Notes: generated by a model from the sequence alone, not told the origin. A stretch of DNA of 63,964 bases, filler included, from Reclinomonas americana ATCC 50394 (GCA_048213135.1; 9 parts of 9 records of this genome joined end to end with filler, not necessarily neighbours in it), one strand, 5' to 3'. Positions 5,026-54,508 are shown, numbered from the whole stretch's first letter. Numbers and translations are program-made.

Positions 5026-8000
5026 TCACGAGTCGAGCATGCCGACGTAGAAGGGCTCTTTGGCGCTGTTGGCCAGTCGGCGGATGTGGGTGCCGGCGAG
5101 CTCTTGGTTGAGGAAGCGGAGCATGTGGGAGTACTCGCGGTCGGTGGTCGGCGGCACCGAGCGCACGTACCACTCGAGCGCCTGGATCATGCGCACGCCT
5201 TCTTCCGTGCGATCACTCTGCGATTTGACATCCACGCGCGAGTTGTACAGCAACTGGTACAGGATGCCTGCGTGCACAGCGAGAGAGAAAGAGAGAGAGA
5301 ATGAGTTGTCAGTAGCGATACGTTTTTGCCGTCGCGTAGCGCGCGTACCGAGATTCTTCATCAGCGGCGGCACGTTGTCCCTTTCGCCGTACCGTGCAAT
5401 CGGCAGCATCTCCAGTACTCGTTGGGCGGCATCTTCCAGGAAGTTCATGTACCGAACGGGATCGGCTGAGGAGCAAGCACGTCAGTAGTCGTCTCCCAAT
5501 CCGCGTTGGTTGTGTGGCTCCAGCACTCACCAGCATACATCTCCTGCGCCCGAGTGATCCAGTAGGCCACGCGATTGACCGTGGCCGTGATGTACGTGGT
5601 CACCATCACAAACTCCCACATGTCGCGCCCGTACAGACGCAAGTCCGGCAGCCAGCGATACTCGCTGATGGGTCTCACCGCCGGCCACGTCTGGTCCAGC
5701 CACTCGAACACTGGAATGCGCGACACGTGGCCCTTCGCCACCGCCTGCTTCGACAGGCCAAAGTCGACCACATCGTAGTGCATCTCCACCTCCAGCTTGT
5801 CTGCCGGTCGCACGGTGGTGGCAAAGAAGATCTTGTGGCCCTTCTTGATGTTGGCGTCGACAAATCCAATCAGCGACGTCCGGCTCCACTGCGGATCGTT
5901 GTTGTAGCGCTTGCCCGAGGACTCCAGCGGCCACAGGACATCGGGCATGTGCGACTTGCGCAGCGCCGTGTACCACTTGTACGACATGAGCTCCTGGTCC
6001 ACTACATGCACATCGGTGCGATACTGTTCCGAGTATTGTACGTAGCGCACACTGTTGCTGACAATGTCGCCAGTTGTCATGAGAATGGCGTTGGGTGGCA
6101 GTGGTCGCAACACCTCCTCCGCCAGTCGACTGAGGATATCGTTCTCGCTCTGGTCCGCCAACGGGTACGTCTGCACCAGCAACAACACGGCGGCCAGCAC
6201 AAATACCAAGCGCCATCCCCACGTCCACTGGCGGCTCCACGGTCCGAGCATCACCAACGACGAGGGGGCGTTGACGAGCGCATGCATACCCACCGCCACC
6301 AGCGCGCACAGCAGCACATTTGGCTGCATCCAGAAGCGAGCACTGACTCCGAAGTCTGTGGACGCACGAGAAAAAAACAGCCAAAGAGTCAGCGACCGCA
6401 CACACAGTTCGCAGAAGTAGGGAGAGAGAATGAGACACGCAACAGATCTCCTTGCTCAAGTCGAGATTGGCGCGACTGTGGAAGAACACGAGGTAGCCGA
6501 TGAGTGAGCTGAAAAATGGCGTCGCCACGCGCGTCAGGAACGAGCGGTACGCCGCCGTTGGCGTGACAAGGGAGGCGGTCGATGCGTCGGCTGCCGAGGT
6601 CGCCGCCGCCGCCGCCTTATTCGAGTTGACAGCGATTGGCGGATCGTGCTTCTTCGACGAGTCGCGGAGCCACGGTAGTAGTCGGCGACTCAACAGCTGT
6701 GTGCGCCGGATGAGAATGCAAGAAACAAGTGGACTGCTGCATGCGCGAGCATGTATGCACTCCACCTTCGGCCACACGTACGGCACCGACAACAGCAGCA
6801 GTGGCAGGCCCAGGTGGTAGGTGTACAGACTGACGTGCGTCGCGTAGTGCATGAGTCCGCCCAGCAGGTCAGGTTCGTCGTCACTGGCTGCGAGCCGAAA
6901 CGTGCCGTACTCGGAGCGCAGCAAGTGTCGCAGGAAACCCTCGATCGTTCGCTGGTCGCCTGTGTTGTATGTGCGATGCGTCAGAAGGCAAGGAGATCGT
7001 CACGCACAGCACGAGTCTCCGTACCCCACGTGTGAGCCGGCCCCATCATGGTGGCAATCGGCATTTGCGCGTACGGCAGCAAGCCAAGGAAGAAGAGGAG
7101 GAGCCAGTCGAGAACTCGCAGAAGAGTAAAGTGTGAACGCAGGCTCCACAACACCCACAGAATGATCGGTATCTCGAAGAGGATGATGGTGTGCTGGTTG
7201 CACAGAAAGAAGCCGCAGGCGAATGCACCCCATCGAGACAGAGACAGCGCACGGCTTTGATCGCCCTCCTCCAACGCCCGTGCAAACGAGGCACACAGCA
7301 GCAGCAACAAGGCCGTGAAGAGATTGTTGAGCGAGAACACCTCCGAGGTCACCGCATGAAGCCACGTCAACTGGCTACACAGGAGGGAACGCATAGACAC
7401 TCTCGTCAGCAAGCGAATGGGCGCACGAAGAGAAGGCGGGAGGGAAAACCGCGCTCAACTTGAACGTGTAGAATCCCGCGGCCGCAGCCGACACCATCAC
7501 ATCATGCTGCGTCAGCTGCAAGCACAACACAAACAGGCACACACTGGCTGCAGTGGCCACAAGCGCATTGACAAAGTTGGCGCGCTACAAACCCCGTCGT
7601 CGTTGTCAGCATCGCAGGGAAATCACCCGACAAGACAGAGACAACAGGCATACCCACGCCGCAGTTGGCCCAAACGGAATCCAATCCAGCGCCGCCTTGG
7701 TGATCATGCAGTACAGCGGGTAACCCGGAGGATGCGCCACACCACCCGAATGCGCTGCCACAAACGCAAGCATATCAATGCATGCATGCATTCTCTCATC
7801 ACTCTCTCTCTCCGTCACTCACCAGCCGCAATCAACTCTCCACTATCGCCTCCCGCCAAGCCCAGCTGCAACGTGCACATGTACACCACGCCCACCACCA
7901 CCATCCACATCACCGCCAGCAGCAGCGTGCGACGCGACACGCAGGCGCCTGCCGCCGACAAGGCCGCGCCCACTGGCATGCATGCCTCGCGATCGACAAG

Positions 8001-8108
8001 AGCACCAGCCGCCGATGCACGAGACGCCGTCGGAGCTGCAACTCCGGCGGAGACAGTCGCAGAGGGTGGCGGCGATGCCGAGACTGCTGTGCGCTGCCCT
8101 CGTCGCAT
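5026..8108 (-). CDS. TMEM260: TMEM260/DUF2723-family protein O-mannosyltransferase, paralogue 1
   Basis: Family motifs GGDSGEL, GGVAHPPGYPLY, EVFSLNNLF, NQHT, LLRSEYGTFRL, RFWMQPN; many transmembrane segments; about 9 exons. Confidence 0.9.
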
Positions 8109-8213
8109 TTATGGTGAGTGGGACAGCGAGACGGAGTTGTCCTCCTTCGCGTTTTTCCTTTCTCTCTTATCTCTTCGTCCGTCGTGGCAGTCTGGCATAT
8201 AGAGCGCGTCGTG

Positions 8214-9345
8214 ATGCGGTACTTGGTGTGCAGTGATGGTGTGTCTTGCTGCGTGTCTGTGTGTGTGTGTGTGGAACCGCGCTAATGTTTCCTTTTCATC
8301 GAATATAGGTTCAAAGTTCGCCAAGCGCGGTGAGTGTGTCTCTTTCTCTCTCACACACACGCGCATTGTGAGCGTGTGTTTGTGTGCGTCTTGTGAGAGG
8401 AGAGCGTGAGAGAGGAAAGGGGGTGGAAAAAAGATGCGTCGCTCACAAAAAGATTCCGAACACCGCAGCGGTGGAGAAGGTTGCCACATTGGTCGCCCCC
8501 GGTGCGTCTCTCCTTTTGTGCGTGTGTGTGCTCTATGGAGTGTGTATCTGACTTGTGTGTTTATACAGGTGACGAGGTGGTGCTGGTCGCGGTGATTGAT
8601 CAGGTGCGTGTGCTCATTGAGTGATTGCTTGGCGGATCGTTGCTCACATGATTGTTTGCAGGCCATCATGCCACCAGCGGTACGCGTGAATGAGAAAAGA
8701 AAGAAAGAGCAATCTTGTGTGTGTGCTTAACAGCATGGTTTGCAGGTCGGACCTGCGGCTGTCATGCTGGTCGATGCGATCGCACCGCCACCAACGTCGG
8801 AGGAGCTCACCGCCGCGGCTGGTTGGTTGTCGGAGGAGGCGCTGCTGTTGGACGGCTTGCTTCCGCACGACGAGGCCGGGGCGCCGACGGTGTCGATTGT
8901 GGAGCGCGTGCAGGCAGGAGACGTGCGCGAAATCATTCCGCACCTGGCTGCTGTTGCGTTGTCGTCGTCGATGGTTGCTGGTCTCGCCCTGCGTTCACAA
9001 CTCACTGACACGTGGCTGGCTGCGCAGGAGCTCAAAAGCGATGTGATTGTGGTGGGATCGCGCGGTCACGGCAAGTTCCGTGTCGATCCGCCCTCGTCTC
9101 TTGTTCTCGAGTGTGTCATGCTTATCGTTTGTCACAGGGTCAAGCGACTTCTTCTCGGCAGTGTGGCCGACTACCTCTTGCACCACTCAGTTGCGCAGCA
9201 CTTGTGTAGTGCTCTTTTCTCCCTTTTCGCCTCTCACGTGTCTCCACACCAGCCGTGCTCGGTGCTGGTGGTGCGACCTGGCGATCCGAGTGTGGCCGCC
9301 GTCGAGCGGCAGCTGGCCAGCTCGAGCGGAATGGGACCGGTATGA
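8214..9345 (+). CDS. Universal stress protein (UspA domain), 9 short exons
   Basis: Spliced product MRYLVCSDGSKFAKRAVE...GDVREIIPHLAAELKSDVIVVGSRGHGKVKRLLLGSVADYLLHHSPCSVLVVRP contains the UspA G-x2-G-x9-GS motif. Confidence 0.88.
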
Positions 9346-9424: not shown

Positions 9425-12193
9425 TCATTCGATGAGGGGCAGTCCGCGGTGCTGCCGCTCTAATACGGTTTGCATGGCGGCCAGCACATCTCCGGCACCG
9501 TACTCCTTCTCCCACCTTTCGAGTCGCCGCACGTGTGCCGCCGGCTTCTTCTTCGCCGTGTGGGAGGCGACAAATTGTTGCACATCGGCGCCTGTCAGCG
9601 TCTCCGTTCCCGGCTGACCGAGCAGCGCAAGGTACGCGCGGTAGGCCAGCAGCATGTGCGCGCCGTCTTCGATGTGCTCCTCGTCGCTGCGTTCCTCCTC
9701 CAGTGCCCACAGATTCTGGTACGCCAATGCGAGCTGCACAGCATGTGATGAGTGAGAAGGGGAGGAAGTGGCGAGGCAGGTTGGGCGGCACGCACATTCT
9801 TGTAAATGGTGCTGCGGTGGTAGGCCGTGCCGTGGCGGAAAATGTGCGCCAATCCACGCAGGCGCGTCAGGACCATGTTGCCCACCAGCACCTTGTCGCG
9901 CGGCGACACCAATTGTGGCAGCAGTGTCAGCAGCTTGCTGGCAAAGTTGTAGTCCTTGGTGGCGTACGAGTCGGCCATCTCATACTCAAACGTCTCCGGT
10001 CCGTAGCGCTGAATGTTGGGCCACGCACTGGACACTTGTAGGCACGGCAATAGGCGCTGAAAGGAGGAGCAGGTGTGTCAGTGTCTAAAACTCGCCGACC
10101 TTGTCAGCAATACACACCTCGTTGGCCAGCGGCAACCACTCGCCAAGCTCCAGGTCCTTCTCGCCGGCTGTCAGCACGCGTTCGGCCACACCGTACGCAC
10201 CAAAGGGTGTGGCCAGGTGAAGTCCTTTGGAGGTGAAATCCCTCTCTTGCAGGTTCAGTTGGGGCAACAGGAAAACGCCGTCGGTGAACAAGTGCGGGTT
10301 GTCGTCGAGGAACGAGCGCACGGTACGCCCTTCGTCGTTGCGAATCACATTGACGCCCGGCACAGCGGCCGGCATGGTCACGTCGGGCATGTACGGTGCG
10401 AGTGACTTGCTGTACCATTCGTACGTGAGCAGCGACTGATCAATGAGGCGCACATCCGGTCGCACGCCCTCGGAGAATTGGACATCTGTGTCCTTGCGCG
10501 GTGAGATCAATGATGCAAGGCATGATGTGCGACAGCCACCCGCAACATCGCACAGCATTGGTCCACTGATCGCCAAACAAGAACACCGTGGCTTTCGGCG
10601 GCAACGACTCCAGTGCCTGTCGCGACACGTCGCGCAAGAACGTGTTGCGCGACTCGTTGCAGTGCTGCGAGTTGTGCGCCACCAGCGCGACAAGGGCCAC
10701 CACACACGCCACACGCACGGCAATGCGCATCGGCGACGGCAGAGCACACCGTCGACTCCTTCGCAGCTGCGTTTGCGATCCCACATCGTGAGCCGCACCG
10801 TGTTTGCCACTGGTAGGTGGTGGCTGAGGAGCGAGAGCGGATGCAGTGAAGTGTCCAGTCAGTTCATGCAGTCCGACCGCGGCCAGCGCACACACGATCA
10901 TGTTTGGCTGCATGGAGAAACGATCGGCAATCGCTGGTATACCAGAAACAGGAACGATCAGTGTCGCTCTCACTCTCTCCTACTCTCAAACCACAAGTGC
11001 ATACGCACCACGAAAGAGCGGCTCGTGGACGCGCAAGTTGGCAAGAGAATGGAATGCCAGCAGGTAGAAGCCGAGCGACGCCAACAGCGGAGTCACCGAC
11101 GGACAGCGCGAGCGCAGCAGACGGAAGCCACCGTAGATGGCCAGCAGCAGCGAAACGCCAAACGTCGACACCGTCACATCGTGCACGTAGCGGAACACGC
11201 CTGTGCACGCAACGCAAGGGTGTAAGGAAGATAACAGATGATGGCAGAGATGGAGGGGGAGGCGTACCACCAATGAGATCGGCGCCACCACCAATCTGCT
11301 CACTGCCGAGCGCAAATGTGCCGTACTCGCGTCGCAGCAGGTGTGTCAGGAAGCCGCTGACGGTCGTGAAATCGCCCCACGTGTGCATCGGCTGGCTGTG
11401 CGCGGTCCACGGCAGGTACGCGTACGGCAGCAGCCCAAGCACGAACAAGGCTGCGAGTTGCACCAACAGCAGCTGCCGCAGCTGCCGTCGCAGCGTCCAC
11501 AGCACCCACACGGCAATCGGAATCACGAAAAACACCAGCGTGTGCTGATTGGCGAGCCCGAGACCACACAGCAAGGCGCCGAGTCGCGCCCGATTCACCG
11601 TCGGCTGCCGAGCAAACGACACTCCCACCAGAAAGATCGCCGCGACAAACACATTGTTCAACGGGAACACCTCCAACGACGTGGCCTGCCGCCACGTGAG
11701 CCGATCAAACGCAAAGAAGCCGGCACCGACCACCGACGCCACCGCATCGCCGTCGGTGAGTCGCCAACACAACAGCAGCAGCAGCGTGGCAGCCGCAGCA
11801 GCCAGCAGCGCCGACATGAAATTGAGCAGATAGGCCGCATTACCGCCAGCGCCGCCACCGCCAAGGCACCACAACCACACACGACCCATGATCACCAGGA
11901 GCGGATAGCCGGGCGGATGCGCGACACCGCCTGCATCAATCGTCACCGCCAATTCACCACTGTCGCCTACACACGCACAATGGATGATCAGCGGTGCTTC
12001 ATTCACCTCTCTCCTCTTCTCTCTCCTCACCTGGGCCGACACTCGGATACACATGCGTCACATACACCACCGCGCAGACAACTCCAAATGTCACTGCAAT
12101 CACCCACTGAGTGAGCGCGCTGCTCTTCTCCCCGCTCTCCGCAGGCGCCTGCGAGGAGGACGGCGCAGCAGCCACGGCGGCTGGTCGGCGCAT
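9425..12193 (-). CDS. TMEM260: TMEM260/DUF2723-family protein O-mannosyltransferase, paralogue 2
   Basis: Motifs PGDSGEL, GGVAHPPGYPL, EVFPLNN, NQHT, LLRREYGTFAL, RFSMQPN, IDQSLLTYEWY; multiple transmembrane helices. Confidence 0.9.
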
Positions 12194-12255: not shown

Positions 12256-15285
<3,030 letters not shown>

Positions 15286-15797: not shown

Positions 15798-17838
15798 TTA
15801 CTGGAACTTAACAGTGGCCTTGAGACGCAGCTCAGCCAAACCAACCAAATCATGCTCGCACATGGACAGGTCCACGGAGCGCAACAGAGGGCACGCCAAC
15901 AAGCCGGAGACATCATGCAAATTGGGGCATCCCTGCAGCATCAGCATCGTCAGCAAGTGGCCAGCAGCAAATGTTTGCGTGTAAGCAGATGATGGCACCT
16001 TCAAAACGACTTTTCTCAGCGTCTTGCACTTGCCAAATGGTTGGCAGTTCTCGATGAACGAGTTGGACGACACCACGACACCCTCCAACACCGGACAGCG
16101 ACCGACCGGCTCGAACGATTCGATCTTGCCGCAGTCGCTCAGGTTCAGTCTGCCACACGCATACATGATAAGTGAGAAGTTCTCCTATCCTTCTGTTATC
16201 ATGCTACACACCTTGTTAGCTTTGGCAGAGCCACCACAGCGGCAATGCTCACCAAATTGGAGCACTTGGAGACATTGATGCTCTCGAGCCGCACGCATCC
16301 ACTCAAAAAGTCGAGATCGACAATACTCTCAATGCTCGACATGTTGATGCTGACCAATCGTGGCAATTCGCGGAGCACCACAAAACTCTCGATTTGTCTG
16401 CACCCTCCAATGTTCAACTGCAAAAAATGGGCGATGTGAGTTCAGTCACGTGGTCGACCGGACTCCCCCACTCGTCTCACATACCCGCTTGATGGCCGTG
16501 CACTGACCGAGAGGCTCAATAGACCGGATCTGAGTGCAGCCGGACAAGTTGACTTTCTGCAGTGGGCACGCGGCCAACGCAGAAATGTCGTGCAGGTAGC
16601 GGCACATCTTCAGATTGAGGCGGAACAGATGCTTGCAGTTGCGCACAAAGTCAATACTGTCAATGTTGCGCGTGCGCTTGAGATTTAGTCGCTGCAGATT
16701 GGTGCACTCGGCCAGACTGCGCACGGTCGGCAGATGGGGGCAATTGGCTGTACAGAGGACAGACACACACACATGCTGTTAGTTCACGAGCGACCTCCCC
16801 GTTCCGTCCCCTCTCTCCTTCTCGACAACTCACCCAGAATCAAATGTCGCAACAGGGTGCACTTCTCCAACGGCGCCACCGACGTCAGTTGCACGCACGA
16901 GCGCAGGTCCAATCCGCGCAAGTTGACGCACGCCGCCAGCGGAGAGATATCCGGCACATTCACACACCAGCTCATGTTTAGCGATTTGAGGTTGGTGCAG
17001 CTCGCCAGTGGCGACACGTCGGTGATGTGTGGGCACTCGCTCAGCACGAGATACTTGAGGTTGACGCAGCCGGCCAGTCCCTGAATGTTGTCCAGCATCG
17101 CACACCCTCGCATATCGATTTCCTGCGCGGTGGGATGAGCGAACAGGAGAGAGAGAGAGGGAGAGAGAGAGAGAGCGCGCAACGCACCATGAGCTCCTCG
17201 CAGTTTCGCAGTGGTGTGACGTCGGTCAGCGCCATGCACTTGGACATGCGCAGCTTGCGGAGCTGTGTTAGACCCTCCATGCCGGCGAGCGACACCAGCG
17301 TCGTGCAGCCACTAATGTCCACCGAGCGCAGCGACCTGGCAGTCTCCAGCGCACTGATGCTGGTCAGCATCGGGCAGCCAGACACCGATAGCTGTGTCGN
17401 NNNNNNNNNNNNNNNNNNNNNNNNNNNNNNNNNNNNNNNNNNNTTAATTAATTAANNNNNNNNNNNNNNNNNNNNNNNNNNNNNNNNNNNNNNNNNNNNA
17501 CGAATGTCACTTGAGACAAAAATCCATCCCAACAACTCACACACGCTCACACTGCTGGCGTCATGTACAACAGCATGAACGTGGCGCTTCACCGCACAAA
17601 CCACCCATGTACAAGAGGGAGAGATATATCGCACACACAATACCCTCTACCGCCGACAATCATTGCTTTGTGTGTGTGTGTGTGTTGTGTGCGTGTGTGA
17701 ACGGCTTGGTGACCATCTCGCGCCCCGCGCCTGTCTCTTCGCACCACCCTTCACTTTTTCTCTCCCTCTCCCACACGCAACTCGCTTGGCCAGAATCTTC
17801 TTTGCCGAGCGCTGAGCCTTTGACGAGGAAGATCCCAT
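15798..17838 (-). CDS. Cys-containing leucine-rich repeat protein with N-myristoylation motif, possibly F-box/LRR; spans a gap
   Basis: Many LxxLxLSxCxxIxDVSPLxxC repeats (15798-17399). Likely first exon MGSSSSKAQRSAKKILAKR starts at 17838. Confidence 0.78.
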
Positions 17839-19879: not shown

Positions 19880-20631
19880 ATGGCTGCACGCCCTGCGCCC
19901 CCCGCTGGTCGTCAGGACCCTGCCAAACTGCTGGCCAGGTTACCCAAGCGCGAGTTTGTGCGCGTCAAAGTGCTCTCTGTGGGCGATGGGGCCGTGGGCA
20001 AGAGCTGTCTGATCAAGCGCTACTGTGAGGAAAGAGTTGCGGCTCACACACACGCACTCACGCACGCTCGCGTCACTCTCCTCGCGCTCCCCGCTCACCT
20101 CCACAATGTGATCAGTTTGTGGCCAAGTACGTGCCGACCATTGGCGTCGACTATGGCGTGAAGGCGTTGGATGTGGTCGGACAGGAGGTTCGCGTGAACT
20201 TTTGGGATCTGAGCGGCCGCGCCGAGTACTTTGAGGTGCGCAACGAGTTCTACAAGGACACACAAGCAGTTGCGTTATCATGTGCGATCGCGCTGTGTTG
20301 AGCGGGGAGCGTGGACGTTGACACATAAGCGCAGGTGATCTTTGTGTACGAGGTCGGCAAGAGAGCCACGTTTGAGGCCCTGGACGGGTGGCTGGAGGAG
20401 GCGACCAAGTACGGTCTGGCCGACACAGCGGTGGTGGCCGTGGTGGCCAACAAGACCGATCTGCACAAGGGCGGAGGCTCGAAGCCACGCGCTGTCTCCG
20501 AGGACGAGGGTCGCTCGTGGGCCACGCAGCACGGCTTCTCGTACTACGAGACGTCGGCGAATAGTGGCGAGGGAGTGACGGAGCTGTTTGAGGGACTGCT
20601 CGGCGTGCTCATGCGTGGACGTAACTCATGA
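19880..20631 (+). CDS. RJL: RJL-family (DNAJC27 GTPase-domain-like) Ras-related GTPase without J domain
   Basis: GDGAVGKSCLIKRYCEERFVAKYVPTIGVDYG, FWDLSG, EVRNEFYKD, ANKTD, YETSA; no CAAX motif. Introns at 20036-20115 and 20269-20334. Confidence 0.9.
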
Positions 20632-23615: not shown

Positions 23616-23721
23616 AATAGANNNNNNNNNNNNNNNNNNNNNNNNNNNNNNNNNNNNNNNNNNNNTTAATTAATTAANNNNNNNNNNNNNNNNNNNNNNN
23701 NNNNNNNNNNNNNNNNNNNNN

Positions 23722-24227
23722 ACCGATGAGTGAGCAGGAGAGAGACGCATGAGCGCATGCAGCGGAGAAACAGAACACACTACTGACCTCGTCATTCTCC
23801 GCCGCCGACGACGACGACGGTGCCTCCTGTGCACGCGCAGTGAGCAATCCATTGACACAGATCCACATGTTCTCTCCATGGCCACTCACCGTCTTGGTGC
23901 GCCTCTGCTCATGCTCCGCCAGCAGCTCTTGTGCCTTTTTATCATCACACTCATGTTATTCTCCGCACTGCGCCGCCTCAACACACACCGACGCCCCCAC
24001 TCACCCTCGCGGTCTTGCGCGCCTCCTCGCGCTCCTGCCGCCGCTGCATGCGCTCGCGTCCCTGCTCCACACTCGCCGTCGGACCAATGCCCAGCGACCC
24101 CGCAATCAATCGTCTCGCCACCACACGCTGCTCATCGTCACCTGCACAGGAAACACACACACACACACACTGCTGTCAGGCACACGAAACAGAGACATGA
24201 GGCGCACAACGACGCGCAACGTTGCAT
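23722..24227 (-). CDS. Small coiled-coil protein resembling the C-terminus of R3HCC1-like proteins; 3' end in gap
   Basis: ATGCAAC|GTTGCG, then RDDEQRVVARRLIAGSLGIG...RQEREEARKTAR, AQELLAEHEQRRTKT, EAPSSSSAAENDE, joined in frame by GT-AG introns. Confidence 0.5.
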
Positions 24228-40200: not shown

Positions 40201-43200
40201 AGTTCACGTACACGTGCGCACCACCTGATACGAGGAATCGACAGAGACAAGTCAACAAGGACGAACAGCAGTTGGAACACGAGAACAGGTCGAACCATTG
40301 ACGTTGCCGAGACCTCCTGTGGAATTGGTGACGTCGACGTGCCCGTTGATCATTGTCGTGTTGAAAATGCCGACCGTGGCCTTGGCGCACGCTAGTCAGA
40401 AGAGACACGCGTGCCAACAAGTACGCAAACGATGTTCAGGCCAGGAAACACACACCGTGGCAGGACTTGTGCTGATGGCGAGAATGTAGAGGCCAGCGCC
40501 GCCGTTCACATTGACGCCATTGATTGCCACAGCCGACGGCACATGCACATCGTGGTCCACAAACGTACAGTTGGAGACAGCAAAGCCGCCAACAGCTGGA
40601 CCCACAGCAAACGACTGCGGATCGACCGACACATACTGGTAGACACCGGCACCTGAGCGTAGAGAGAGAGTCAGTCAGTGAGTGGGTGAGTTAAAGGCAG
40701 GAGTGAGTGACATGTAAAAGGCACCTCCAATAGCGTTGACAGCCAGCGGCCCACCAGTGGCCACGCAACCGAGCGCCTCGATTCGATTTCGCGCAAACAA
40801 CGATTGCGCCACCTCCACCAGCATGGAGGAGCCGCCAACGTTGGAGCCACGGACCACGGAGCCGAAAATGACCACGGCGCCTGCAAAAAAATAAAAAAAG
40901 TGAGCCTCTGTGCGCTGTGGCTACGACCAGCAAACTTGCTCTGCCTATATCTATAGTTGTCACCTCCGCCAAACACACTCGATGCCACAATATCCGACAG
41001 CTCCACAGAGTTGTCGGTGACAATGTTGTACCGGAAATCAGCTTGCGTCTCCTGCAGACCAATGGCCGACGACTCAAAGTACACGGCGCTGCCACCGAAC
41101 AACGCGATTCCGGTGCCAGTGTTCACTGCACCGGCACGGAGCCGATTGCGGAGGAACTGGCAGCCGGCTACCACCACCGAGGTGACGGATGGCGCCGATT
41201 CGGCGTGGGCCTGTATAGACTATCAGCAGGTGCACTCAGCGCAACGGTCACTGTCTCTCCCCCGCTCCGTACCTGGTTGGTGGACGAAAACACTCGAAGG
41301 CCACCGCTGAGGCCACCATACTGCGTCGATGTCTGTCGGTAACCGGTGACCAGCGTGTCGGTGAGGGTCAGCTGGCCCACCAAGATGGTGTTCTCCACCG
41401 CACTTGCATTGTACATGCCATTTGAAAAGAGCGCGACAATGCCACCTGGCCACGCACACACTCGTCAGTCAGTCATCGCAGAGTGTGACAAAGATAAATG
41501 CACGGCATACGCACCATTGACATTGTACTGGGCGGTGGAGTCGCTGACATCCAGTGTAATGTTGCTACATTGCACGTTGGTGATGAGACTTGTCAGCTGC
41601 CGCAACGATCCGCACAGAACTGAGTGAGGTAGCGTCAATTGTACCACCACAAAACAATGCCCACTGCACCTGACTTGGGCCGAGAGCGGCATCGGCGGCA
41701 ATGGCCAGTGCACCACCACTGTTCACGTTGGTGCCATTAACACACATGGCGCCTGCCGCGGCCACTGTTGCATTAAAGAACGACGAGTCGGTCACATCGC
41801 TGACCAGATTGACAGCGTAGGCGCTGGTGCCGTGATGCAAGACGGGTTGGGCGGCCAGCACGTACACAAATCCACCACTGCGGTAGGAGGTCGTGAGCCA
41901 TGAACGGGAAACAAGCGCGGTCACGTCCGTCTGTGTGTCCGTACCCATTAAAGTTGATAAAGCTGGCTGTCATGTTTTGCGCCGAGAGCAGTGCATTGGA
42001 GAACGAGCACTGTTTTATCGCCAGCTCCACATTGTCGTTCGATGCGCTGCGACAAAAACGAGAACGCGTAAGCCACATCCACGCACACATAACAATCAGA
42101 AATGTGTGGAATACTACGAAACATAAACACCGACCCGCCACCAGCAAAGTTAGTCTCCGCATTGGCAAAGTCCAAGAGGGTAGTGGATCCCTCAAATGTG
42201 CTGTTCCCGAGACCAGCAATTGAATTGCCGACACCGCCGTTTGACGAAGCGTACGTGAAGACGTCGGCACCTACGCGGATCTGGGTCAGAACGTTGGGCC
42301 TGTACCAGCAAAACAGGAGAGAGTGCATGTACCTCCGAGCACATTGCGCCCGATGGCGCCTGCAGAGCGCGCCGATACCCGCTGTCCTCGGAACGTGCAG
42401 CCGCGAATGACACTGGTCACTTGCGAGACGCCGTTGTTGGTGTTGAACACTGACGAGTGCACAGCGCCGCCGAGCGAGTTCTCCAGCGCAGCGCTGCAAC
42501 GACGGCCACAGTCATGTGACGCAATGTAGGCAACATACATACGGTTCATGGAAATGTACGACGCAACAAGCTATTGTCGTGCACAGAAGCGCAGTTCACG
42601 ACGGTCGAATTGAGTACCGTGGTCTGCACTACCACCGAGTCCGTGCAAGCAAAGCATGCGCCGGATACAAACAGCGCCGCGCCACCCGCAATATTCTGCA
42701 CACGGAATGAGTGAACCACGGGCAGCCAAACCAAGAAGAACACGAATCCGACATACCGAAGCCACAGATCCTGCCCCCGACGCATTGATTGTGTTCCCGA
42801 TGAACGAACATCCTATCGAACTGCTCGACAGTGTGCGTTAGCAGACGCAAATGGTGGCCAAGAAATTGAAAGGCATACTCAACGTATGAGCAATGGTCGG
42901 CGGTGTGGTGCCGTATGCAATCGCATACTGGTGCAGAGTTCCGCCACCTGCGTCATGCCAAACACATTAGTGTCTTACGCCGATGCGAGCAGAGTAGCAA
43001 ACACTTTCTTTCGTACACGACACTCACCGATAAAGTTCATGAGCAAGGCAGCGATATTGACGGCCGTCAGCGTGTTGTTCTCGCTGTGCACGGACTGCAG
43101 TTCCAGGGTGACTGCGATGGAGTCTCCTTGTGCCATTACCATCAGTGCACCACCTGCATCGCGCACTCCATAATCATCAGCATCCACTCAAGCTGTCATT

Positions 43201-45298: not shown

Positions 45299-48200
45299 AT
45301 GCCGGTGGATGTGGAGGCGGTGGTGGCAACATCAGCAGCGGCACCGGTGTCGCTGTTGGCGCGCCGGGCGGTGACCACCAACAGCCATTCACTGTCGCCG
45401 AGGTGAGTGCGTGACTGTGTGTGCGTGTGCGTCTGTGTGCGACTGTGCATTGATGAGTGCTGTGTGCGCAGTGCATCTTCGCGGTCTCGGTTGAGCACGC
45501 TGCGCAGCGTCACTCGTGATGTGATGATGGTGGACGATGATGAAGAAGATGAGCAGGTCGATATCGATTGTCGACCTCTCTCGTCTCCTCTGTGCCTTCC
45601 CTCCTCTGTCGTGTCGCGTGTGCCGCTGAGTGAGGCTGAGGTGGTGGACTTGCTGCAAGAGTCCGCTGCCCTGTCATCGCCACCGCCGCGACCACCAGCA
45701 CCTCCTGTGCAGTCCATGTTTGTGGACGGCGCCGGCAACGACGGCTCTGTTGACGAGTCCGACCTGTTGCTCTGTCTCAGCGACTTGGCGACCGAGCATG
45801 TGAACATGTCACCGCCGGTGGACGATGACCTTGGCACTCCTCCTCCGCCCCTTCCTCCGCCACCGCCACCGCCACCGCCACCAGCTGCGGTGTTGCCGCG
45901 TCAGTTGGGCGACTACTTGGGAGTGGATGCGCCGGAGATTGTGGAAAAGTACGCCGCCATGGGCATCGTGGAGTTGCACCCGTGGCAGCGCGAGGCGCTG
46001 AGCTCGCCCGGTGTGCTCGATCGCCATCGCAGCCTGGTGTACACGGCGCCAACCAGTGGTGGCAAGACTCTCGGTTGCGTGCTCGCCTGGCACTGCGATC
46101 GGTGACCACTCGCTCACGTACTCACACGACACAGTGGCCGAGATCCTTCTCCTCCGCCGCCTGCTGCTCACGGGTCACAAGGCGCTCGTCATCTTGCCGT
46201 TTGTCAGCATTGTGCGCGAAAAGGCAAAACAGCTGTCTCGAGTTGCGTGGAACTCCTCTCGCTCCCTGTGTTCACTCACTCACCCACTCATCCGCCGACA
46301 GATCCTGAAGCCCGACGGCTTCACCGTCTCGGCGCATTACAACGTGGTTGGCGGCTCACTCGGCGAGGATGAGCACGTGGCGGTGGCCACCATTGAAAAG
46401 GCCGCCGGCATGGTGAATCGTCTCATTGAGGAGGGTCGTGTGCGCGAGCTCGGCACGGTGGTGGTGGACGAGGCGCACATGATGGGCGATCCATCACGCG
46501 GCTTTCAGATTGAGTGCACGCTGACCAAGCTCCGCCACGCCGTCGGCGCTCAGCTGCAGGTGGTGGCCATGAGTGCCACGCTGCCCAACATGCCCGACAT
46601 TGCGCACTGGCTCGACGCCGTGCTGTACCAGACGTCGTTTCGACCCACGCAACTTGACGAGTGCTTTGCCATGGAGGGACGAGGCGAAACCGACGGTGGG
46701 CAGGAGTACTTGGTGTTGCACGATCGAGTTCCGTGTGGTTGTTTGCTTTTTTCTTTCATTGACTTGTTGACCAGCTCTGACCGGGTGGCAACACACACAC
46801 ACACAGAGTGGCCAACCGAGTCAGTACGTGAACCCGAGCGACGGACAACTGTGCACTCGTCGGCTGCCGGTGTTGCCTGTCAGCCAAACCACAACTGTGT
46901 TCAGCAACAACATCCACCAGTTCCTCTTCCGTGCAGTTGCGCACCGGCCAACATTTCCCTTTTTTCCTCCCCTTGCTGGCCTTTCTGCTTACCACGCAGC
47001 GCAGGGTTTCAACACGATTCACGACAGTGTGCTTCGGGGCGAGGGTGTGCTGGTGTTTTGTGCGACCAAGAACAATTGCATCGAGTTTGCGCGCGGTTTT
47101 GCGCAGAGGGCCAATGGAGTTGGTGCGTGGTGACGCGACATGAACACTGTGTGCCACGATGTTGACCCCCTCCCNNNNNNNNNNNNNNNNNNNNNNNNNN
47201 NNNNNNNNNNNNNNNNNNTTAATTAATTAANNNNNNNNNNNNNNNNNNNNNNNNNNNNNNNNNNNNNNNNNNNNACTCCACCCGATCTCCGAGGTGTGTA
47301 TTGTTTCGTTGGGGAGAAAGTCCCGTGGTTCTTCCTCGCTTATGTCGTTTACACACAGATGCCGCGGCGAGGTATCTACGGCCGGATCCCGCATGCCTGG
47401 CTCGCATCGAGAAGCTGCAGCGCAAGCTGCGTCTGGCCTCGGCAGGTGGTCCCGACTCGATGTTTCTGTTGGAGTGCATCGGTCGTCGGGCGGCCTGGCA
47501 TCACGCCGGCCTCACCCTGGAGGAGCGTGCACTGGTGGAGCGCGCCTTTCTCAAGGGCACTATCCTGGTCATTTTTGCCACCACCACACTGTCGGCCGGC
47601 GTCAACCTGCCTGGTGTGTGTGCCACTGTGTGTTTCGTGAAGGAAAATCTCCTACTGACGGTGGGACACAGCGCGCAAGGTCGTGTTTCTCGGCATGAAT
47701 AGCGGCATCCAACCGCTGTCTCGCGTGGTGTACCAGCAAGCTCGAGGGCGCGCCGGTCGCGGTCCGCTCTCTGGCGAGTCCATCCTCATTGTGCCGCGCC
47801 AGCAGCACCGAAACAAGCAGGACGCCATTATCGAGCTGATGACTGCAGGCCTCGACCCGCTCGCCAGTGCACTGGCGAATGCCGTCACCGGTACTGCTGC
47901 CGCCGCCGCCGCCGCGGCTGCTGCTGCCTCCAGTAGCAGACGAGAGCAGTCAACTGAAGCCGCGCCTCGGTTGCTGCTGGATGTCATTGGCTGTGAACTG
48001 GTGCGCACCGTGGAGGCCGCATGCGAGCTGTTTGCCACCACCTTTCTGGCGTACGAGAGGTACTGATAGTGCGCCAGGCGGCACGCGAAAAAATGCTTGT
48101 TATAACGCTGCGTGTCGCATGCAGGCGCGATCAGGGCGACCAGTACGTGAAGTCGCTGGTCGAGTGCTCGGTTGACACTCTCCAGCGACGCGGCCTGCTC

Positions 48201-49613
48201 GACGTGGACGCGGACGGGCGGTCACTCAAAGTCACACCCCAAGGCTATGCGGTCTTTGCGAGTGGCATGGCGCCCGCCGATGCAGAGGTCGTGTGTTCGC
48301 ACTTGCGCGAGGCCATGAACGGATTGGTGCTGTCCACCGAGTTGCACCTGGTGTACCTGGCCACTCCCGTGCCGATCCCGGCCGAGATCATCTCCTCGTG
48401 CTCGTGGAGCCGCTTGGATTCGGCGCTGAAGCGCCTCAACCGCGACGAGCTGAATGTGGCCGAGCGGTGTGGTGTGCGCCTCGGCTACGTTTTCAGCAAG
48501 TCGTCGTCGGCCAACGATGCACCTGGGGTGCGTCGCGCAGTGCTGGCTGACCAGCTACGATCGAAGCCCTGCTAACCACCATCCTTCGTGTCGCAGATCG
48601 TGTACCAGCGCTTCTGGGTCGCTCTCATTCTGCACGATATCATTCGAGAAAAGCCGCTGGCGAGCATCACCAAGGAGTTGCGTGCATGCCACTGGAGAGA
48701 AAAGTCGCGGACGTTTGTGCTCACGCCGCACAACGTGTCTCGCACCAGCTACGGAATCGATGGTGGCGCACTGCAGAGCCTGCAAGTCCGAGCCGGCTCG
48801 TTTTGCAGCAGTGTGCAAGCGCTGTGCGAGCGCATCGGCAACGGCACCAACATCTTCGGCTACAAGTGTCTGGCCAGCACTCTCAGTACCTACAAGGACC
48901 GCATCAGCTTTGCCGCGCGTGCCGACATTCTCGCTCTGTGCCAGGTACCATACGTGGGCCCTCATCGTGCACGGTCTGTCGTTCAAGTCTCTGTGCAGTA
49001 GCCACCCGCACTCTGCTGACGTTCGTCACATCACAGCATTCTCATTGGCGACTTCAAGACGCCACAAGAGCTGGCAGTGGCGGACCCCGAAAGGGTGGCC
49101 GAGCTGCTGGTGCGTTTTTGTCATCCCCACGACGCGGTAACGATAGGCCTGCACTCAAATGCGTGCAACCATTTGCAGGAGCGCGACGAAGGTGGCGACC
49201 GTGAGTTTTACCGCCGCATTGCCATGAAAATTGTCAGTGGTGCGGCGCGCGTGGCGGAGCAGGTGTTGACGGAGAAGCGCGACGAATGGAAGCGCGTCAA
49301 AGCGCAGCTGATCGGCGACAAGCGCAAGAAGCAGCAACAGCAGCAGCAGAAGAACAAGAAGAAGAGACCGGCTGCGAAGCGAGGAGTGGCTGTCGCACGT
49401 GCTGTGCGCGGCAAGGCTGCGACGGCGTCTGGCGGCAAGCGTGGTACAAGGAGCGACAAGTCACCCCGCCCGTCCATGTCCGCCTCCTCGCGGGCCGCCA
49501 GCCAGCTACTGATGCGCAGTGTGGCCGTCTCTGCTTCTTCGCCATCGCGCAAGTCGCTCAAGAAGCTGCTGCTGACCCCGCCGTCGTCGCCACTCCCGCT
49601 TCGGACGGCGCCA

Positions 49614-49645
<32 letters not shown>

Positions 49646-52600
49646 GCCAGCAGCGTCGTCATCCATGTCAGTCGCCGACCGTGCACTGTTGCGTTGTTTC
49701 CCAACTTTCTTTGGTTCACTCATGTCTGACACACTTGTCGCTGCGCAGCAGGGAAACCGTCATCTCAGGCAAGCGGTCGGCCGCGGAGCAATCCCTTGCC
49801 GTTGTCGACGACGATGCTCTCGGTGTGGAGGACGACGACGATGATGATGACGACGCGGAAATGCTGCGCTTGCTGCACGACTTGTCGTCGATTCGTCCAT
49901 GTGACAGTGACCATGACGACGGACCGCCTCGTAAGCGTCCGTGCATTGCTGTTGACGAGATGCAATCTGTTTCTATTACGACGACAACAACGACCACTAC
50001 CACCACCACCACACCCACGACACCGCCACGGTCAGCTGCCGCTGCTACCGACTCAGCGCCCACTTTTGTCGTGCCCTCGAGTGCGTACGTGTACGTGATA
50101 CATGAGTTCCATGGCCGTCGATTGACCCTTGTGTTGTTGCAGCACTCACGGGAACCAGTCCATCATCTCGTGTGCCGCTGCATGGCGGCTCGGCATCTCG
50201 GTCGATGAAAGCGATTCTTGCAGCCATGGACATGGTGGATGATGACGACGGCAGCGGCGTCGATGGAGTGGCCACAGGTCGTGGTCCGAGCGACAAGCAC
50301 TCTGCCGTGCAGATGCTGCAGGAGTTGCGTGGACAAGGTACACAAACCCGTTTCCGTGCCCATGGGCAGGCCGCAGCGCCGGCTCGTCGGACCGGTGGCG
50401 CACAAAAGGTACGTCTGTACATGCATTGCTGTGTGACTGAAGTTGGTGCCCACCATCTGTGGTGTGTAGAAACTGACTACGGTGCCGGTGAAACTCGCCA
50501 CCTCGTCGTCGTCGCCATCCAAGTCGCCGGCGGGTGACGGGCCGGCGGTATCGTTGCGTTGTGTGTGTGGGAGGAATATGTGCCGCGCAGTGTGGTGCCG
50601 ACCTTTTTCACTCTCTTGCAGGGTGTTCATGGTGGACTCGGCGGAGAAGTTGGCTCGCTTTGTTGCGCGGTGGTCGTCACAGTCGTCGTTTGCCATCCTG
50701 ATGGATGTGGAGGTGCCGCGACGTGCACAGGCCACTGCCACGGTCTGCAATCAGGAAATTTGATTGCTTTACACACCTCCGCCACGAGGCTCACTGATTT
50801 CGTACAGGCTGATCGAGTCGCGCGCATTCACGTCTGTTGGGAGGACTCGGCCGTGTACACATGTCCGCTGTTGGCCGACAGTGACCGCGATAGTGCCGTA
50901 GACGCTGCTGCGGTGTGGGCCGCCATCGCCACGGTCCTTGAGAAGCCCGACACGACCAAGGTGATGGCCAGCTGCAGCACCCACATGCATCACTTGCTGG
51001 AGAAGGGAGTAGCTGGTGAGCGAGCGCAAAAAAATGCGTCTGTTGAGTTCACCAAGCTGACCGAAAAAATGCAGTGGCGGGTTCGTATCACGATCCTCTG
51101 GTGGCTGCATGGCTGGTGGCACCGGAGATCACCGCCAAGAGTGTGGATGCGCTGTTTCTTCGATTGCATGCTCACTTTGACGATCAGTTCACGCCCTCCT
51201 TCTCCGTCGCCGGCGGCTTCCACCTCGGGGCGCGACATGTTGCGTGCATGCTTGTGCACAGTCACTTACTTTTTGTCAGCGCGCGCAATGCTAATCGCCG
51301 CCGGCATCTGTATAGTGTCTGTACTCGTGGCGACTGATGCAAGTGTTGCGTGGCCGGCTGGAGGAGACGCAGCAGTTGCGCCTGTTCTGCGAGGTGGAGA
51401 TGCCCGTGTGCACTGTCCTCGCACGCATGCAACTGGTGGGCGTCGGTTTCGACGCTCAGGTGAGGCTTCGCGCCTGTTGCGCAATCCGTGGTCAGGAGTT
51501 AGCTCTGCACTAACACTCGATGGTTTTTTGTGACCAGCATTGCACATCGTCGGCGGAGATGTTGCGGCAGTCGATTCGTCGTCTCGAAGCCGAGGCGCAC
51601 GCCCTGGTCGGGTACACCTTCAACTTCCGCACCCCCAAGGATGTGAAACTGGCACTGCACCGCTCCGGTTGTGCCATCTCGCTCGATGCGAAGCGTGGCA
51701 CCGACGCCAAGACTCTGCGTGCGCTCGCCGCCTCCGGTTCACGCATGGCCACGTTGGTGCTGCAGCTGCGCACGCAAGCGTATTTGTTGCGCAAGGTAGA
51801 CGACCTGCCAAGGTGAGAGGGCGTGCATGTGCACTTGTTTCGGTACGCTTGTAACCAACCTGTGTGGGGCGGGGGAGTGTAGAAAAGTGCGTGCCACCAC
51901 TGGCCGTCTGCATCCGCGGTTCCTGTCGGCCAGCTGCATCACGGGGCGAGTGCAGAGTGAGGCACCGAGCTTGCGTTCGATTGCGAATCCCGTCACATTC
52001 GATGCCATGGTGGCGGACAGGTGCGAATGGTGGCGCAGTGTGCGAGGAGTGGCCTGCTGGTTTCTGACTGCTCGTTGCAGTGCACAACCAGTGTCGCGAA
52101 CAATTGCGCTGCGGTGTGCGTTTGCGGCCACCGCAGACCACACGCTGGTGGCGATCGATTATGCACAAGTCGAGTTGCGCCTGCTGGCACAGCTGTCGCG
52201 TGACCCGTACTTGCTGGCGATTTTTGCAGCCGAACGGTACCAGCTCACGTAATAGAATAATGTTTTCTTCGCCGTAGACTCACTGTGGCAATGGCAGATC
52301 CACCGTGCCTGTGGCTGGCATGGGCTTTGTCGGTGAGGACGTGTACTGCCGTATTGCGCGTCGTGTGTTCCGTGTGGCAGACGCGGCCGCTGTGCCGACG
52401 CCCGTGCGCGCTCGTACTCGTCGAGTGGTGTCGGCCATTCTGCAAGGTGAGCGAGAAGAGAACAGGGTTGCCATGCACATGCAGTTATTCATTCTTCTTG
52501 TGTGAGTACAGGGCAATCTGAGTTTTCGCTGCGGTCGCGCCTGCCGGGCTCCGACGCCGAGATTCAGGAGACATTCCGCGGCTTCTATCGCTCCTTCCCG

Positions 52601-53366: not shown

Positions 53367-53611
53367 CGTGTCCTCCCACCTCGTCATCATGATGATGATG
53401 ATTGATGCTCACCTGCGTGCGCGACAGTGGCGACGACGTACCGGACCCCCTGGAGGTCGACGACGAGCAAGGCGACGATGACGACGATTAGTCTGCGTGC
53501 CAGACACACACACGCGCGCTGCATTACGATTTTTCGAGGCGGAGGAGAAAAAAGCCAGGAGCAGGGGCGGGTCGCCATTCGCGATCGCCACCCCCCACGA
53601 CCTATGTGGCA

Positions 53612-54508
53612 TCAGTGGCCCTTCTTCTTCTTGAGGCCTTTTGTGCTGGTGCTGGCACGCTTCTCCCACTTGCTCTTCTTGAGCTTCACCGGCCGGTTGG
53701 CAATGTACTTGCCTGCAGAGACGCAATGATGAGTGTGTGTGCGTTCCAGTGCGAGAAAGGGAGCGGAAAAAGAAAGTCACCAAACCATTCATCTCTGTCA
53801 GCGCCGCCAAAAAGTCCTTGGGATCGAGGAACGACACAAAGCCGTAGCCACGAGTCTTTCCTGAGCGCTTGTCGCGCACCACACGCGCCTTGACAAAGCT
53901 CTTGTAGCGCGAAAAGGCCTCGGTCAAGTTGGCATCGGTGCACTCGTTGCCGAGATCGCCGACAAAGATGCGGAAGTCGTTGTCGGGCCAGTCGGCCAGC
54001 GAGTCGTCCTCCCACACCTGCCCGGCCACGCGCCGAATGTACCGCTTCTTGCCGTCCTCGTCCACACCATCATCGTCATCGTCGTCTCCTCTCGACGCTG
54101 CCGACGATTGCGATGGCGGTGGTGGCGGTGGCGGTGGCGGTGGTGGAGGCGGCGGAGGTGGTGGTGGCGGAGGAGGCACAGGGAAGCCATACATTGCCGC
54201 CTGATTCATGAGGAATGCCGGCATGCCTGGTGGCGGCGCCGGTCGCGGCGGAGGCGGTGGGGGTACGGCTATCGACAGCAAAGCGAGTCAGAATGCATGC
54301 ATGCATATATGCAGCGAAGAAGAAGAGAGGAGCGCAACGATAGTGCACTGGCATCATGTTCACTCGCTGCGCGGCCATTTGCGCAGCTGCCACGGCCGCT
54401 TGCACTTGTCCCGGCGGCGGAGGTGCCGCTGGTGCTGCTGCTGCTGCTGCAGGCTGCTATTCTGTGATAAGAAAACATGCACACAGCGCGGGAACACACA
54501 GCAGACAG
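53612..54508 (-). CDS. RBM42: RNA-binding protein 42 (tri-snRNP RRM protein); 5' end in gap
   Basis: WEDDSLADWPDNDFRIFVGDLGNE...ARVVRDKRSGKTRGYGFVSF...EMNGKYIANRPVKLKKSKW. Confidence 0.93.

Follow-up and report, generated by a model that had tools for sequence, protein, structure and literature searches.

Human 5′ splice sites recognized in a register displaced by one base are the closest described counterparts of the introns reported here; the founding study of these shifted-register sites is said to be the one that Roca and Krainer published in Nat Struct Mol Biol in 2009, and the bulge +2/+3 register of human 5′ splice sites was reportedly described by Roca et al. in 2012. In the C. elegans allele unc-73(e936), a cryptic site is said to lie one base upstream, and compensatory U1 suppressors reportedly exist. 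Ostreococcus, according to what Irimia and Roy are said to have found in 2008, has strict GTGCG(T/C) donors and an ACTGAC branch motif; we know of no shifted donor class in Ostreococcus. Both shifted and bulged registers of U1 small nuclear RNA (snRNA) pairing are established, in the excerpts of two sources used here, for a small minority of human sites (PMC4856993, PMC9311317): in the excerpts of the former (Tan et al. 2016), the validated non-canonical registers together make up 1.5% of 201,541 human 5′ splice sites, and 68 human sites are predicted to use the bulge +2/+3 register (PMC4856993). Excerpts of a study of unc-73(e936) state that the G-to-U change at intron position 1 activates neighbouring cryptic GUs, propose that SNRP-27 holds the 5′ site during the hand-over from U1 to U6, and note a G at +6 among the mutant-promoted sites (PMC6140464). 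Here we analyse the introns in a 63,964-base stretch of eukaryotic DNA (58% G+C; hereafter the window), which consists of nine contigs joined end to end with eight 100-base linkers. Many of these introns begin N/GTTGCG, where the slash marks the exon–intron border, −1 is the last exon base, and +1 is the first intron base. Judged from the sequence, this class of shifted donors appears to be real and frequent, comprising 15–20% of the modelled introns in the window. Searches of a limited literature collection returned nothing relevant on GTTGCG or GUUGCG as a splice signal, or on a variant U1 in intron-rich protists.

As the original prediction for this DNA had proposed, the motif is that of an ordinary donor moved by one base: nG/GUGCGU and n/GUUGCGU differ at a single position, and the cut goes with the GU. 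The likeness to human shifted-register sites lies in the cleavage at GU, in U1 pairs that would all be slid by one with G+1 in place of G−1, in the G at +6, and in the U after GU. However, such sites number a handful in humans, whereas here they account for 15–20% of modelled introns and include the top donor hexamer. The core also differs, being AAGU in humans and GCGU in the window, where the duplex with a human-type U1 is too weak. The resemblance to unc-73(e936) is that a position-1 change of G to U leaves neighbouring GUs in use and that factors of the U1-to-U6 hand-over would set the exact cut. In contrast to that mutant allele with its inefficient cryptic sites, the arrangement in the window is the normal state of 15–20% of modelled introns, including introns of conserved housekeeping genes. 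The ordinary donors (GTGCG in 39 of 138) and the CTGAC/CTCAC branch motifs resemble the grammar of Ostreococcus, but the genome here is intron-rich: intron density is very high, with ~190 introns, mostly 56–99 bases long, per 37.9 kb of modelled coding sequence.

Donor use was surveyed with a purpose-written, self-trained hidden Markov model, in which a three-periodic coding model was seeded by Pfam-supported exon pieces, intron lengths were explicit, and introns were restricted to GT..AG. Even in a flat-signal first pass, no donor hexamer was as common as GTTGCG (9 of 45). With a single donor matrix, which penalizes a non-G base at −1, the model contained 184 introns (109 GTG, 44 GTT, 26 GTA, and 5 GTC), 21 of them starting with GTTGCG, and missed two homologue-confirmed introns at 46242 and 48677. 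Separate matrices for donors with T at +3 and for all other donors (the two-class run) gave 190 introns in 22 genes, with 29 GTTGCG and 28 GTGCGT donors. When the donor was described only as "GT" and the coding, acceptor, and length models were kept (the donor-blind run), GTTGCG still ranked first, with 28 of 200 or 27 of 244 introns. Across the runs it was the commonest or second-commonest donor hexamer (21–29 of 184–244 introns). The original prediction had listed 27 shifted donors, all of which bear the motif assigned to them (GTTGCG at 23, GTTCCG at 2, GTTTCG at 1, and GTTGAG at 1) and follow the −1 base given for them (A at 13, T at 9, C at 3, and G at 2). The two-class run recovered 23 of the 27 and added 16 further shifted-type sites, and the earlier count of eight shifted introns in POLQ matches the model, where they are 8 of 28.

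The word GTTGCG occurs 90 times on the two strands, compared with ~79 expected, and is not over-represented. With an abundance so close to expectation, the word count by itself proves nothing, and donor use is the real question. A common hexamer could have been chosen both by manual rebuilding of exons and by the gene finder while the true donors were conventional GTs nearby, particularly as the finder missed 4 of the 27 sites and self-training can reinforce a motif. We consider such an artefact very improbable. In the donor-blind parse, which ranks GTTGCG first, forbidding the word cost 99.3 log-odds units, compared with 63.8 for GTGCGT, 41.3 for GTGAGT, and 0–3.6 for four control words of like abundance. 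A test that used no gene model points the same way: in 30 of 89 GTTGCG copies, CT[ACG]A[CT] and a subsequent YAG completed a possible intron of 55–100 bases, compared with 1185 of 8490 GT sites overall (p 1.7e-6). No other GT hexamer represented by 25 or more copies reached as high a share; three words that differ from it in the last letter, GTTGCA, GTTGCC, and GTTGCT, gave 6 of 70, 6 of 54, and 3 of 48, respectively.

Homologous proteins provide further evidence against misplaced donors, with ten of the listed sites fixed to the residue by colinearity: 46074, 46242, and 48677 in POLQ; 6443, 7459, and 10546 in the TMEM260-like genes; 20036 and 20269 in the RJL GTPase; 13091 in the kinase; and 28027 in the PDCD5-like gene. 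Protein profiles were aligned to the DNA with a purpose-written spliced aligner whose knowledge of donors was limited to GT, with introns taken as GT..AG. A TMEM260 profile built from 23 homologues placed introns at 10546, 6443, and 7459, and the other introns that it placed agree with the gene models except for two weak ones. Forbidding GTT donors lowered the alignment scores of the two TMEM260-like genes from 555 to 535 and from 502 to 463. Similarly, a POLQ helicase profile of 17 homologues placed 46074, 46242, and 48677, and its score fell from 677 to 620 when GTT donors were forbidden. The intron at 46074 interrupts the Walker A loop (...GKTL/VAEIL), which is legible directly in the sequence. 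In the polymerase domain of POLQ, the profile alignment does not span the intron at 51239, beginning only at 51316, immediately past the end of that intron; the site at 51239 was used in the alignment with one homologue only (P0008).

Solved structures fix the donors in three further genes. The three exon translations of the RJL GTPase lie end to end on 6jmg_A, exon 1 reaching residue 40, exon 2 covering 41–90 (91), and exon 3 starting from 92/93. This gap-free abutment fixes 20036 and 20269. Exon 3 used as a homologue query gave no match. We also considered introns that start with UU and are cut one base later; this was rejected, as only a cut at GT gives RJL exon 2 the first residue that 6jmg_A predicts. 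For the SNF1/AMPK-like kinase, residues 3–53 of exon 1 correspond to residues 35–84 of 2yza_A and residues 1–44 of exon 2 correspond to 87–130. The gap between them equals the last codon of exon 1 plus one split codon, and the same is true on 4red_A, so that 13091 is fixed. In the PDCD5-like gene, residues 2–21 of exon 2 match residues 35–54 of 8i25_A (E 0.26, a weak match from a 21-residue piece) and residues 2–66 of exon 3 match residues 57–122 (E 2.8e-7). Exactly one split codon therefore lies between exons 2 and 3 on 8i25_A, likewise on 6iqc_A, which fixes 28027. For 27881, PDCD5 exon 1 had no match among solved structures. For 8953, 9075, and 9190 in the Usp-domain gene, an exon of that gene gave one match (E 8e-4) in a representative library and none against solved structures.

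The donors of the two-class run fall into three groups: ordinary donors (n = 138), GTT donors with G at +6 and without G at +5 (shifted, n = 39), and GTT donors with G at +5 (n = 12). Ordinary donors carry +3G in 75%, +4C in 46%, +5G in 86%, and +6T in 57% of cases and mostly follow G, as had been stated (118 of 138, or 86%). Their consensus is G/GT[GA]CGT, with C and not A most often at +4, a preference for which pairing with a human-type U1 does not account. In the shifted class +4G is found in 82%, +5C, the position matching ordinary +4, in 90%, and +7T in 74%, and the base at −1 is A in 16 donors, T in 14, C in 5, and G in 4. The proposed association of GTT donors that carry +6G with a base other than G at −1 is borne out by this census of the window (−1G in 4 of 39 compared with 118 of 138 ordinary donors, p 1.8e-18), and GTT donors with +5G behave as ordinary ones (11 of 12). 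The single-matrix run gave −1G in 4 of 28 shifted and 112 of 140 ordinary donors. A donor-blind run with an intron penalty of −5 gave T 14, A 14, C 5, and G 4 at −1 of shifted donors, with −1G in 12 of 15 GTT donors with +5G and 75 of 94 ordinary donors. Among homologue-checked donors, −1G is present in 1 of 10 shifted and 14 of 14 ordinary sites (p 7.6e-6). The requirement for G at −1 is lost in the shifted class.

Outside this position, the shifted motif tolerates less variation than the ordinary one, which would be expected from the loss of one pair. C precedes the conserved G in 35 of 39 shifted donors (+5C) and 64 of 138 ordinary donors (+4C; p 8.7e-7), and the GCG core is present in 29 of 39 shifted donors, compared with 39 of the ordinary +5G donors (p 1.1e-5). 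The class is almost limited to this strongest core, and of the motifs that had been proposed for it, GTTCCG, GTTTCG, and GTTGAG are only minor members. When positions +4 to +9 of shifted donors were scored with the ordinary profile for +3 to +8, the log-likelihood was −214, as against −469 for the unslid profile (−161 and −292, respectively, with the single-matrix models). On the exon side, the slid profile gave −158, the unslid, bulge-type profile −211, and plain exon background −169 (single-matrix, −114, −142, and −121). The slid profile is thereby favoured over the unslid one by 131–255 ln units on the intron side and 28–53 on the exon side, where it also exceeds exon background by 7–11. 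The base composition at −1 of the shifted class resembles that at −2 of ordinary donors (T 44, A 41, C 38, and G 15), and is unlike that at ordinary −1. The original prediction had assigned intron G+1 the role of the exon −1G and had linked this to an excess of A at −1. The register is supported statistically, but there is no special excess of A, with A in 16 and T in 14 of 39 donors, and G is depleted instead.

These counts bear on an explanation in which a U is bulged. G+1, U+2, and the exon end would stay in the normal register, one U at +2 or +3 would bulge out, and GCGU would pair one step further on. The motif does equal GUGCGU with one extra U, a likeness at motif level to the human bulge +2/+3 register, with its normal donor and extra U after GU, and bulge registers have been demonstrated experimentally for human sites in the excerpted text of PMC4856993. 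However, a bulge register keeps −1 opposite C9 of U1 and so predicts the usual −1G. Retention of the exon end in the normal register, as in the human bulged sites, is contradicted by the −1 counts for the three donor groups, and on the exon side this register scores below not only the slid profile but also plain exon background. A bulged U is therefore an unlikely explanation.

Beyond the donor, shifted-type introns share their features with the other introns of the window, all of which were modelled as GT..AG. The branch motif CTNAY was detected in 26 of the 39 shifted introns and in 104 of 139 ordinary short ones, at a median distance of 19 and 17.5 bases, respectively, from the 3′ end, and CTGAC and CTCAC occur 42 and 51 times in intron tails, where 6.4 and 10.3 are expected from intron bodies. 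Both donor classes have [GA]CAG acceptors, and median intron length is 69 bases for shifted and 68.5 bases for ordinary introns. Shifted-type introns are thus, to judge by these signals, ordinary-sized U2-type (major) GT-AG introns. U12-type (minor) introns have a long conserved donor of the RTATCCTT type and a matching branch box; assignment to this type was rejected, because the donors here are GTTGCG and the branch motifs, CTGAC/CTCAC, do not differ from those of the remaining introns. A young, introner-like family of copied introns with a common start would be in keeping with the many introns that begin GTTGCGT(G/T) and with their narrow length range. Yet an all-against-all comparison of the 190 modelled introns returned microsatellite matches only, including one 15-base match with a shifted-type intron, which indicates that shifted introns are not copies of a mobile intron. 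As lengths, branch motifs, and acceptors are also those of all other introns, such a family is scarcely credible.

The best explanation of the shifted class is, in our view, that the major spliceosome reads a normal donor in a shifted register. We consider this probable, with shifted base pairing as the likely cause. In such a scheme, the first intron G of the normal heptamer G/GUGCGU would be replaced by U, leaving a GU one base upstream at which the cut would be made, to give N/GUUGCGU. The recognition register would slide by one base, placing intron G+1 where the exon G−1 usually stands and +6G where +5G usually stands, and the position of the cut would be fixed later by the GU itself as U6, U5, and Prp8 take over. 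Candidate readers would be an ordinary U1 that tolerates a C8·U mismatch, a U1 with a 5′ end that is not of the human type, and a second U1 species with A at position 8.

Duplexes were folded between each donor (−4 to +10, with classes defined by sequence) and the human-type U1 5′ end (PMC4856993), ignoring pseudouridine and proteins. The mean duplex energy was −6.45 kcal/mol for ordinary donors, −5.55 for GTT donors with +5G, −1.71 for shifted donors, and −2.95 for unused exonic GT sites. In the shifted class, C4 of U1 pairs with +6 in 15 of 39 donors and never with +5, and C9 pairs with +1 in ten donors and with −1 in four.

Several observations weigh against recognition by shifted pairing. 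When compared with 600 unused exonic GT sites, the human-type U1 distinguishes ordinary donors with an area under the curve (AUC) of 0.86, but shifted donors with an AUC of 0.31, below the decoys. Its predicted duplexes with shifted donors are very weak, and simple slippage of a standard U1 does not account for the choice of site. In sense exons, 21 copies of GTTGCG are not used as donors, so the motif alone is insufficient, although the same holds for GTGCGT (18 unused and 28 used), which is proportionally alike. No Rfam family reached the gathering threshold in the window, where hence no U1, U5, or U6 gene was detected. Finally, most of the counts derive from the self-trained gene finder applied to a single 64-kb window of nine joined contigs.

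Changing the U1 sequence alters this picture. Among 32 hypothetical U1 5′ ends, those with A at position 8 gave an AUC of 0.82–0.95 for shifted donors, but only 0.59–0.73 for ordinary donors. No single variant was good for both classes, and the best compromise reached AUC values of 0.85 and 0.65. The weak pairing with human-type U1 makes a variant U1, an altered U1, or a cofactor likely. As far as a pairing model can tell, this favours the part of the original prediction that invoked variant snRNAs or cofactors over plain slippage of a standard U1. A more specific possibility, which we put forward tentatively, is that two donor codes operate in parallel: standard U1 would read G/GUGCGU, a dedicated second U1, with C8 changed to A and position 5 perhaps to G, would read N/GUUGCGU, and the offset of one base would be something that U6 and the catalytic core regularly absorb.

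Alternatively, recognition could be independent of U1 pairing, with a protein or a later snRNA contact (U6, or U5 with Prp8) reading a downstream UGCGU element together with a GU close by, the distance between them being free to vary by one base. The two donor classes would then stem from loose spacing and not from two registers of U1. This would fit the poorer pairing of the standard U1 5′ end with shifted sites than with decoys; in addition, the demand for C at +5 (35 of 39) faces pseudouridine in a human-type U1 and hence is not explained by pairing. However, ordinary donors fit standard U1 well (AUC 0.86), and the depletion of G at −1 mirrors ordinary −2, as expected from one recognition frame that has slid. 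No other spacing class, such as one with two extra bases, is found among the 190 modelled donors. We regard recognition without U1 pairing as doubtful, and shifted-register reading of a normal donor by the major spliceosome remains the explanation we prefer.

The individual sites, together with the linkers between contigs, are collected in Table 1.

Table 1. Shifted-type introns, candidate donors, and artificial linkers in the window. Donors are written as −1 base/intron start; "listed" sites come from the original prediction and "new" sites were added by the gene finder.
Feature	Donor	Positions	Strand	Source	Support or remarks
Shifted-type intron	a/GTTACG	201..271	-	new	gene finder: single-matrix, two-class, and donor-blind runs
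Shifted-type intron	t/GTTGTG	3064..3123	-	new	two-class and donor-blind runs
Shifted-type intron, TMEM260-like gene A	t/GTTGCG	6356..6443	-	listed	homologue profile and gene finder
Shifted-type intron, TMEM260-like gene A	a/GTTGAG	7375..7459	-	listed	homologue profile; gene finder in two-class run only
Candidate intron, Usp-domain gene, 75 bases, in frame, stop-free	t/GTTGCG	8953..9027	+	listed	ACTCACTGAC branch motif, GCGCAG end; gene finder reads through
Shifted-type intron, Usp-domain gene	a/GTTCCG	9075..9137	+	listed	all gene-finder runs except flat
Shifted-type intron, Usp-domain gene	a/GTTGCG	9190..9252	+	listed	two-class and donor-blind runs
Shifted-type intron, TMEM260-like gene B	t/GTTGCG	10486..10546	-	listed	homologue profile and gene finder
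Shifted-type intron, SNF1/AMPK-like kinase	t/GTTGCG	13091..13153	+	listed	colinearity on 2yza_A and 4red_A; all gene-finder runs
Shifted-type intron, kinase gene	c/GTTGCG	14472..14537	+	new	gene finder
Shifted-type intron, kinase gene	g/GTTGCG	14610..14674	+	listed	gene finder
Candidate donor	a/GTTGCG	17776..17781	-	listed	motif present; poorly modelled, beside contig joint; in no gene model
Shifted-type intron, RJL GTPase	a/GTTGCG	20036..20115	+	listed	6jmg_A colinearity
Shifted-type intron, RJL GTPase	a/GTTGCG	20269..20334	+	listed	6jmg_A colinearity
Shifted-type intron	a/GTTGCG	22232..22307	+	listed	gene finder
Candidate donor	c/GTTGCG	24215..24220	-	listed	motif present; poorly modelled, beside contig joint; in no gene model
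Candidate donor	a/GTTGCG	24565..24570	+	listed	motif present; within poorly modelled 275-base predicted intron, beside contig joint
Shifted-type intron, RING-finger gene	t/GTTGCG	25855..25922	+	listed	flat and two-class runs
Candidate shifted-type intron, PDCD5-like gene	a/GTTTCG	27881..27961	+	listed	two-class run only
Shifted-type intron, PDCD5-like gene	t/GTTGCG	28027..28094	+	listed	8i25_A and 6iqc_A colinearity
Shifted-type intron	c/GTTTCG	29428..29493	+	new	gene finder
Shifted-type intron	a/GTTGCG	30870..30938	+	new	gene finder
Shifted-type intron, giant repeat gene	a/GTTGCG	31570..31639	-	new	gene finder
Shifted-type intron, giant repeat gene	t/GTTGCG	32574..32642	-	listed	two-class and donor-blind runs
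Shifted-type intron	g/GTTGCG	33989..34064	-	new	gene finder
Shifted-type intron	a/GTTGCG	35096..35164	-	new	gene finder
Shifted-type intron	a/GTTGCG	36244..36312	-	new	gene finder
Shifted-type intron	t/GTTGCG	38388..38455	-	new	gene finder
Shifted-type intron	t/GTTGCG	39533..39607	-	new	two-class run only
Shifted-type intron	t/GTTTCG	42047..42122	-	new	gene finder
Shifted-type intron	t/GTTGCG	42494..42567	-	new	gene finder
Shifted-type intron	c/GTTGAG	42821..42883	-	new	two-class run only
Shifted-type intron, POLQ helicase domain	g/GTTGCG	46074..46134	+	listed	homologue alignments; Walker A split
Shifted-type intron, POLQ, in frame, no stop	a/GTTGCG	46242..46301	+	listed	homologue alignments; tblastn and single-matrix finder read through
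Shifted-type intron, POLQ	a/GTTCCG	46728..46806	+	listed	two-class and donor-blind runs; homologue P0013 gives same donor, different acceptor
Shifted-type intron, POLQ	a/GTTGCG	46936..47004	+	listed	two-class and donor-blind runs; homologue profile favours different parse
Shifted-type intron, POLQ	a/GTTGCG	48677..48748	+	listed	homologue alignments
Shifted-type intron, POLQ central region	t/GTTGCG	49688..49748	+	listed	gene finder
Shifted-type intron, POLQ central region	c/GTTGCG	50553..50621	+	listed	gene finder
Shifted-type intron, POLQ polymerase domain	t/GTTGCG	51239..51315	+	listed	homologue P0008 only; gene finder
Shifted-type intron, RRM protein gene	c/GTTGCG	54269..54338	-	listed	two-class and donor-blind runs
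Shifted-type intron	g/GTTCAG	63414..63487	+	new	gene finder; weakest motif
Shifted-type intron	t/GTTGCG	63623..63688	+	new	gene finder
Artificial six-frame-stop linker		12373-12472			44 N + TTAATTAATTAA + 44 N, identical in all eight
Artificial six-frame-stop linker		17400-17499			as above
Artificial six-frame-stop linker		23622-23721			as above
Artificial six-frame-stop linker		47175-47274			as above
Artificial six-frame-stop linker		54509-54608			as above
Artificial six-frame-stop linker		57653-57752			as above
Artificial six-frame-stop linker		60992-61091			as above
Artificial six-frame-stop linker		62833-62932			as above

Modelled introns also contain GTTGCG internally, with 11 copies on the sense strand and 1 on the antisense strand (for example at 13300, 25487, and 51476 on the plus strand and at 36823 and 41245 on the minus strand). 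The sense-strand copies could be alternative donors, decoy donors, or signs of mis-set intron borders.

Pfam matches to open frames identify the genes of the window as eukaryotic. They include POLQ with its helicase and polymerase domains, two TMEM260-like genes, the RJL-type GTPase, a short-chain dehydrogenase, a UCH protease, an RRM protein, a phosducin-like protein, ribosomal protein S8e, a Usp-domain protein, LRR and RING proteins, and a giant beta-helix/PMP-repeat gene. POLQ runs on across the linker at 47175-47274, which shows that the order of the contigs is correct at least at that joint. The best protein relatives are 42–46% identical, and a metagenome scan gave 4 loci at 41–46%. The collections searched thus contain no close relative, and none of these matches is near enough for a comparison of orthologous introns. 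Rfam searches at E values up to 1 returned, on both strands, only microRNA-type matches in a CT/GA-rich low-complexity region at 60766-60990, which are most likely spurious.

The two TMEM260-like genes, members of the protein O-mannosyltransferase family, are neighbours on the minus strand (5029-7979 and 9428-12193), and their mutual identity is only 34%. A quick tree unites the two genes and gives weak support for animal TMEM260 as their sister group (Shimodaira–Hasegawa-like approximate likelihood ratio test, SH-aLRT, 84). This position is a hint and does not place the organism. A single modelled gene at 31238-44770 on the minus strand has 58 exons and encodes ~3,100 residues, with matches to right-handed beta-helix and Chlamydia-PMP-type repeats; it carries 10 of the 16 newly found shifted-type donors. 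At 53615-54378, also on the minus strand, lies the gene for a small RRM protein (Pfam RRM_1) with a long proline-rich N-terminus, the first intron of which has a GTTGCG donor. We take its RRM region to resemble that of RBM42, presumably a protein associated with the tri-small nuclear ribonucleoprotein (tri-snRNP).

The shifted class has practical consequences for annotation. About one intron in six here will be mis-modelled by any gene finder or splice-site scorer built around G at −1 and +5, and in-frame, stop-free introns (46242-46301 and the candidate 8953-9027) are read through, adding 20–25 spurious residues. For splicing itself, shifted or bulged U1 pairing is regarded as a rare exception in humans, whereas here shifted reading is apparently one of two main ways in which introns start, and it is found in conserved genes such as POLQ, RJL, TMEM260, the AMPK-like kinase, and PDCD5. 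If this is true, the organism would offer a natural system for studying how the cut site is fixed at the U1-to-U6 hand-over, how far the spacing of the GU and the U6 helix may vary in the catalytic core, and whether variant U1 snRNAs can carry a distinct splice-site code. Were two U1 species to read the two donor classes, laboratory suppressor U1s would have a natural counterpart on the scale of a whole genome.

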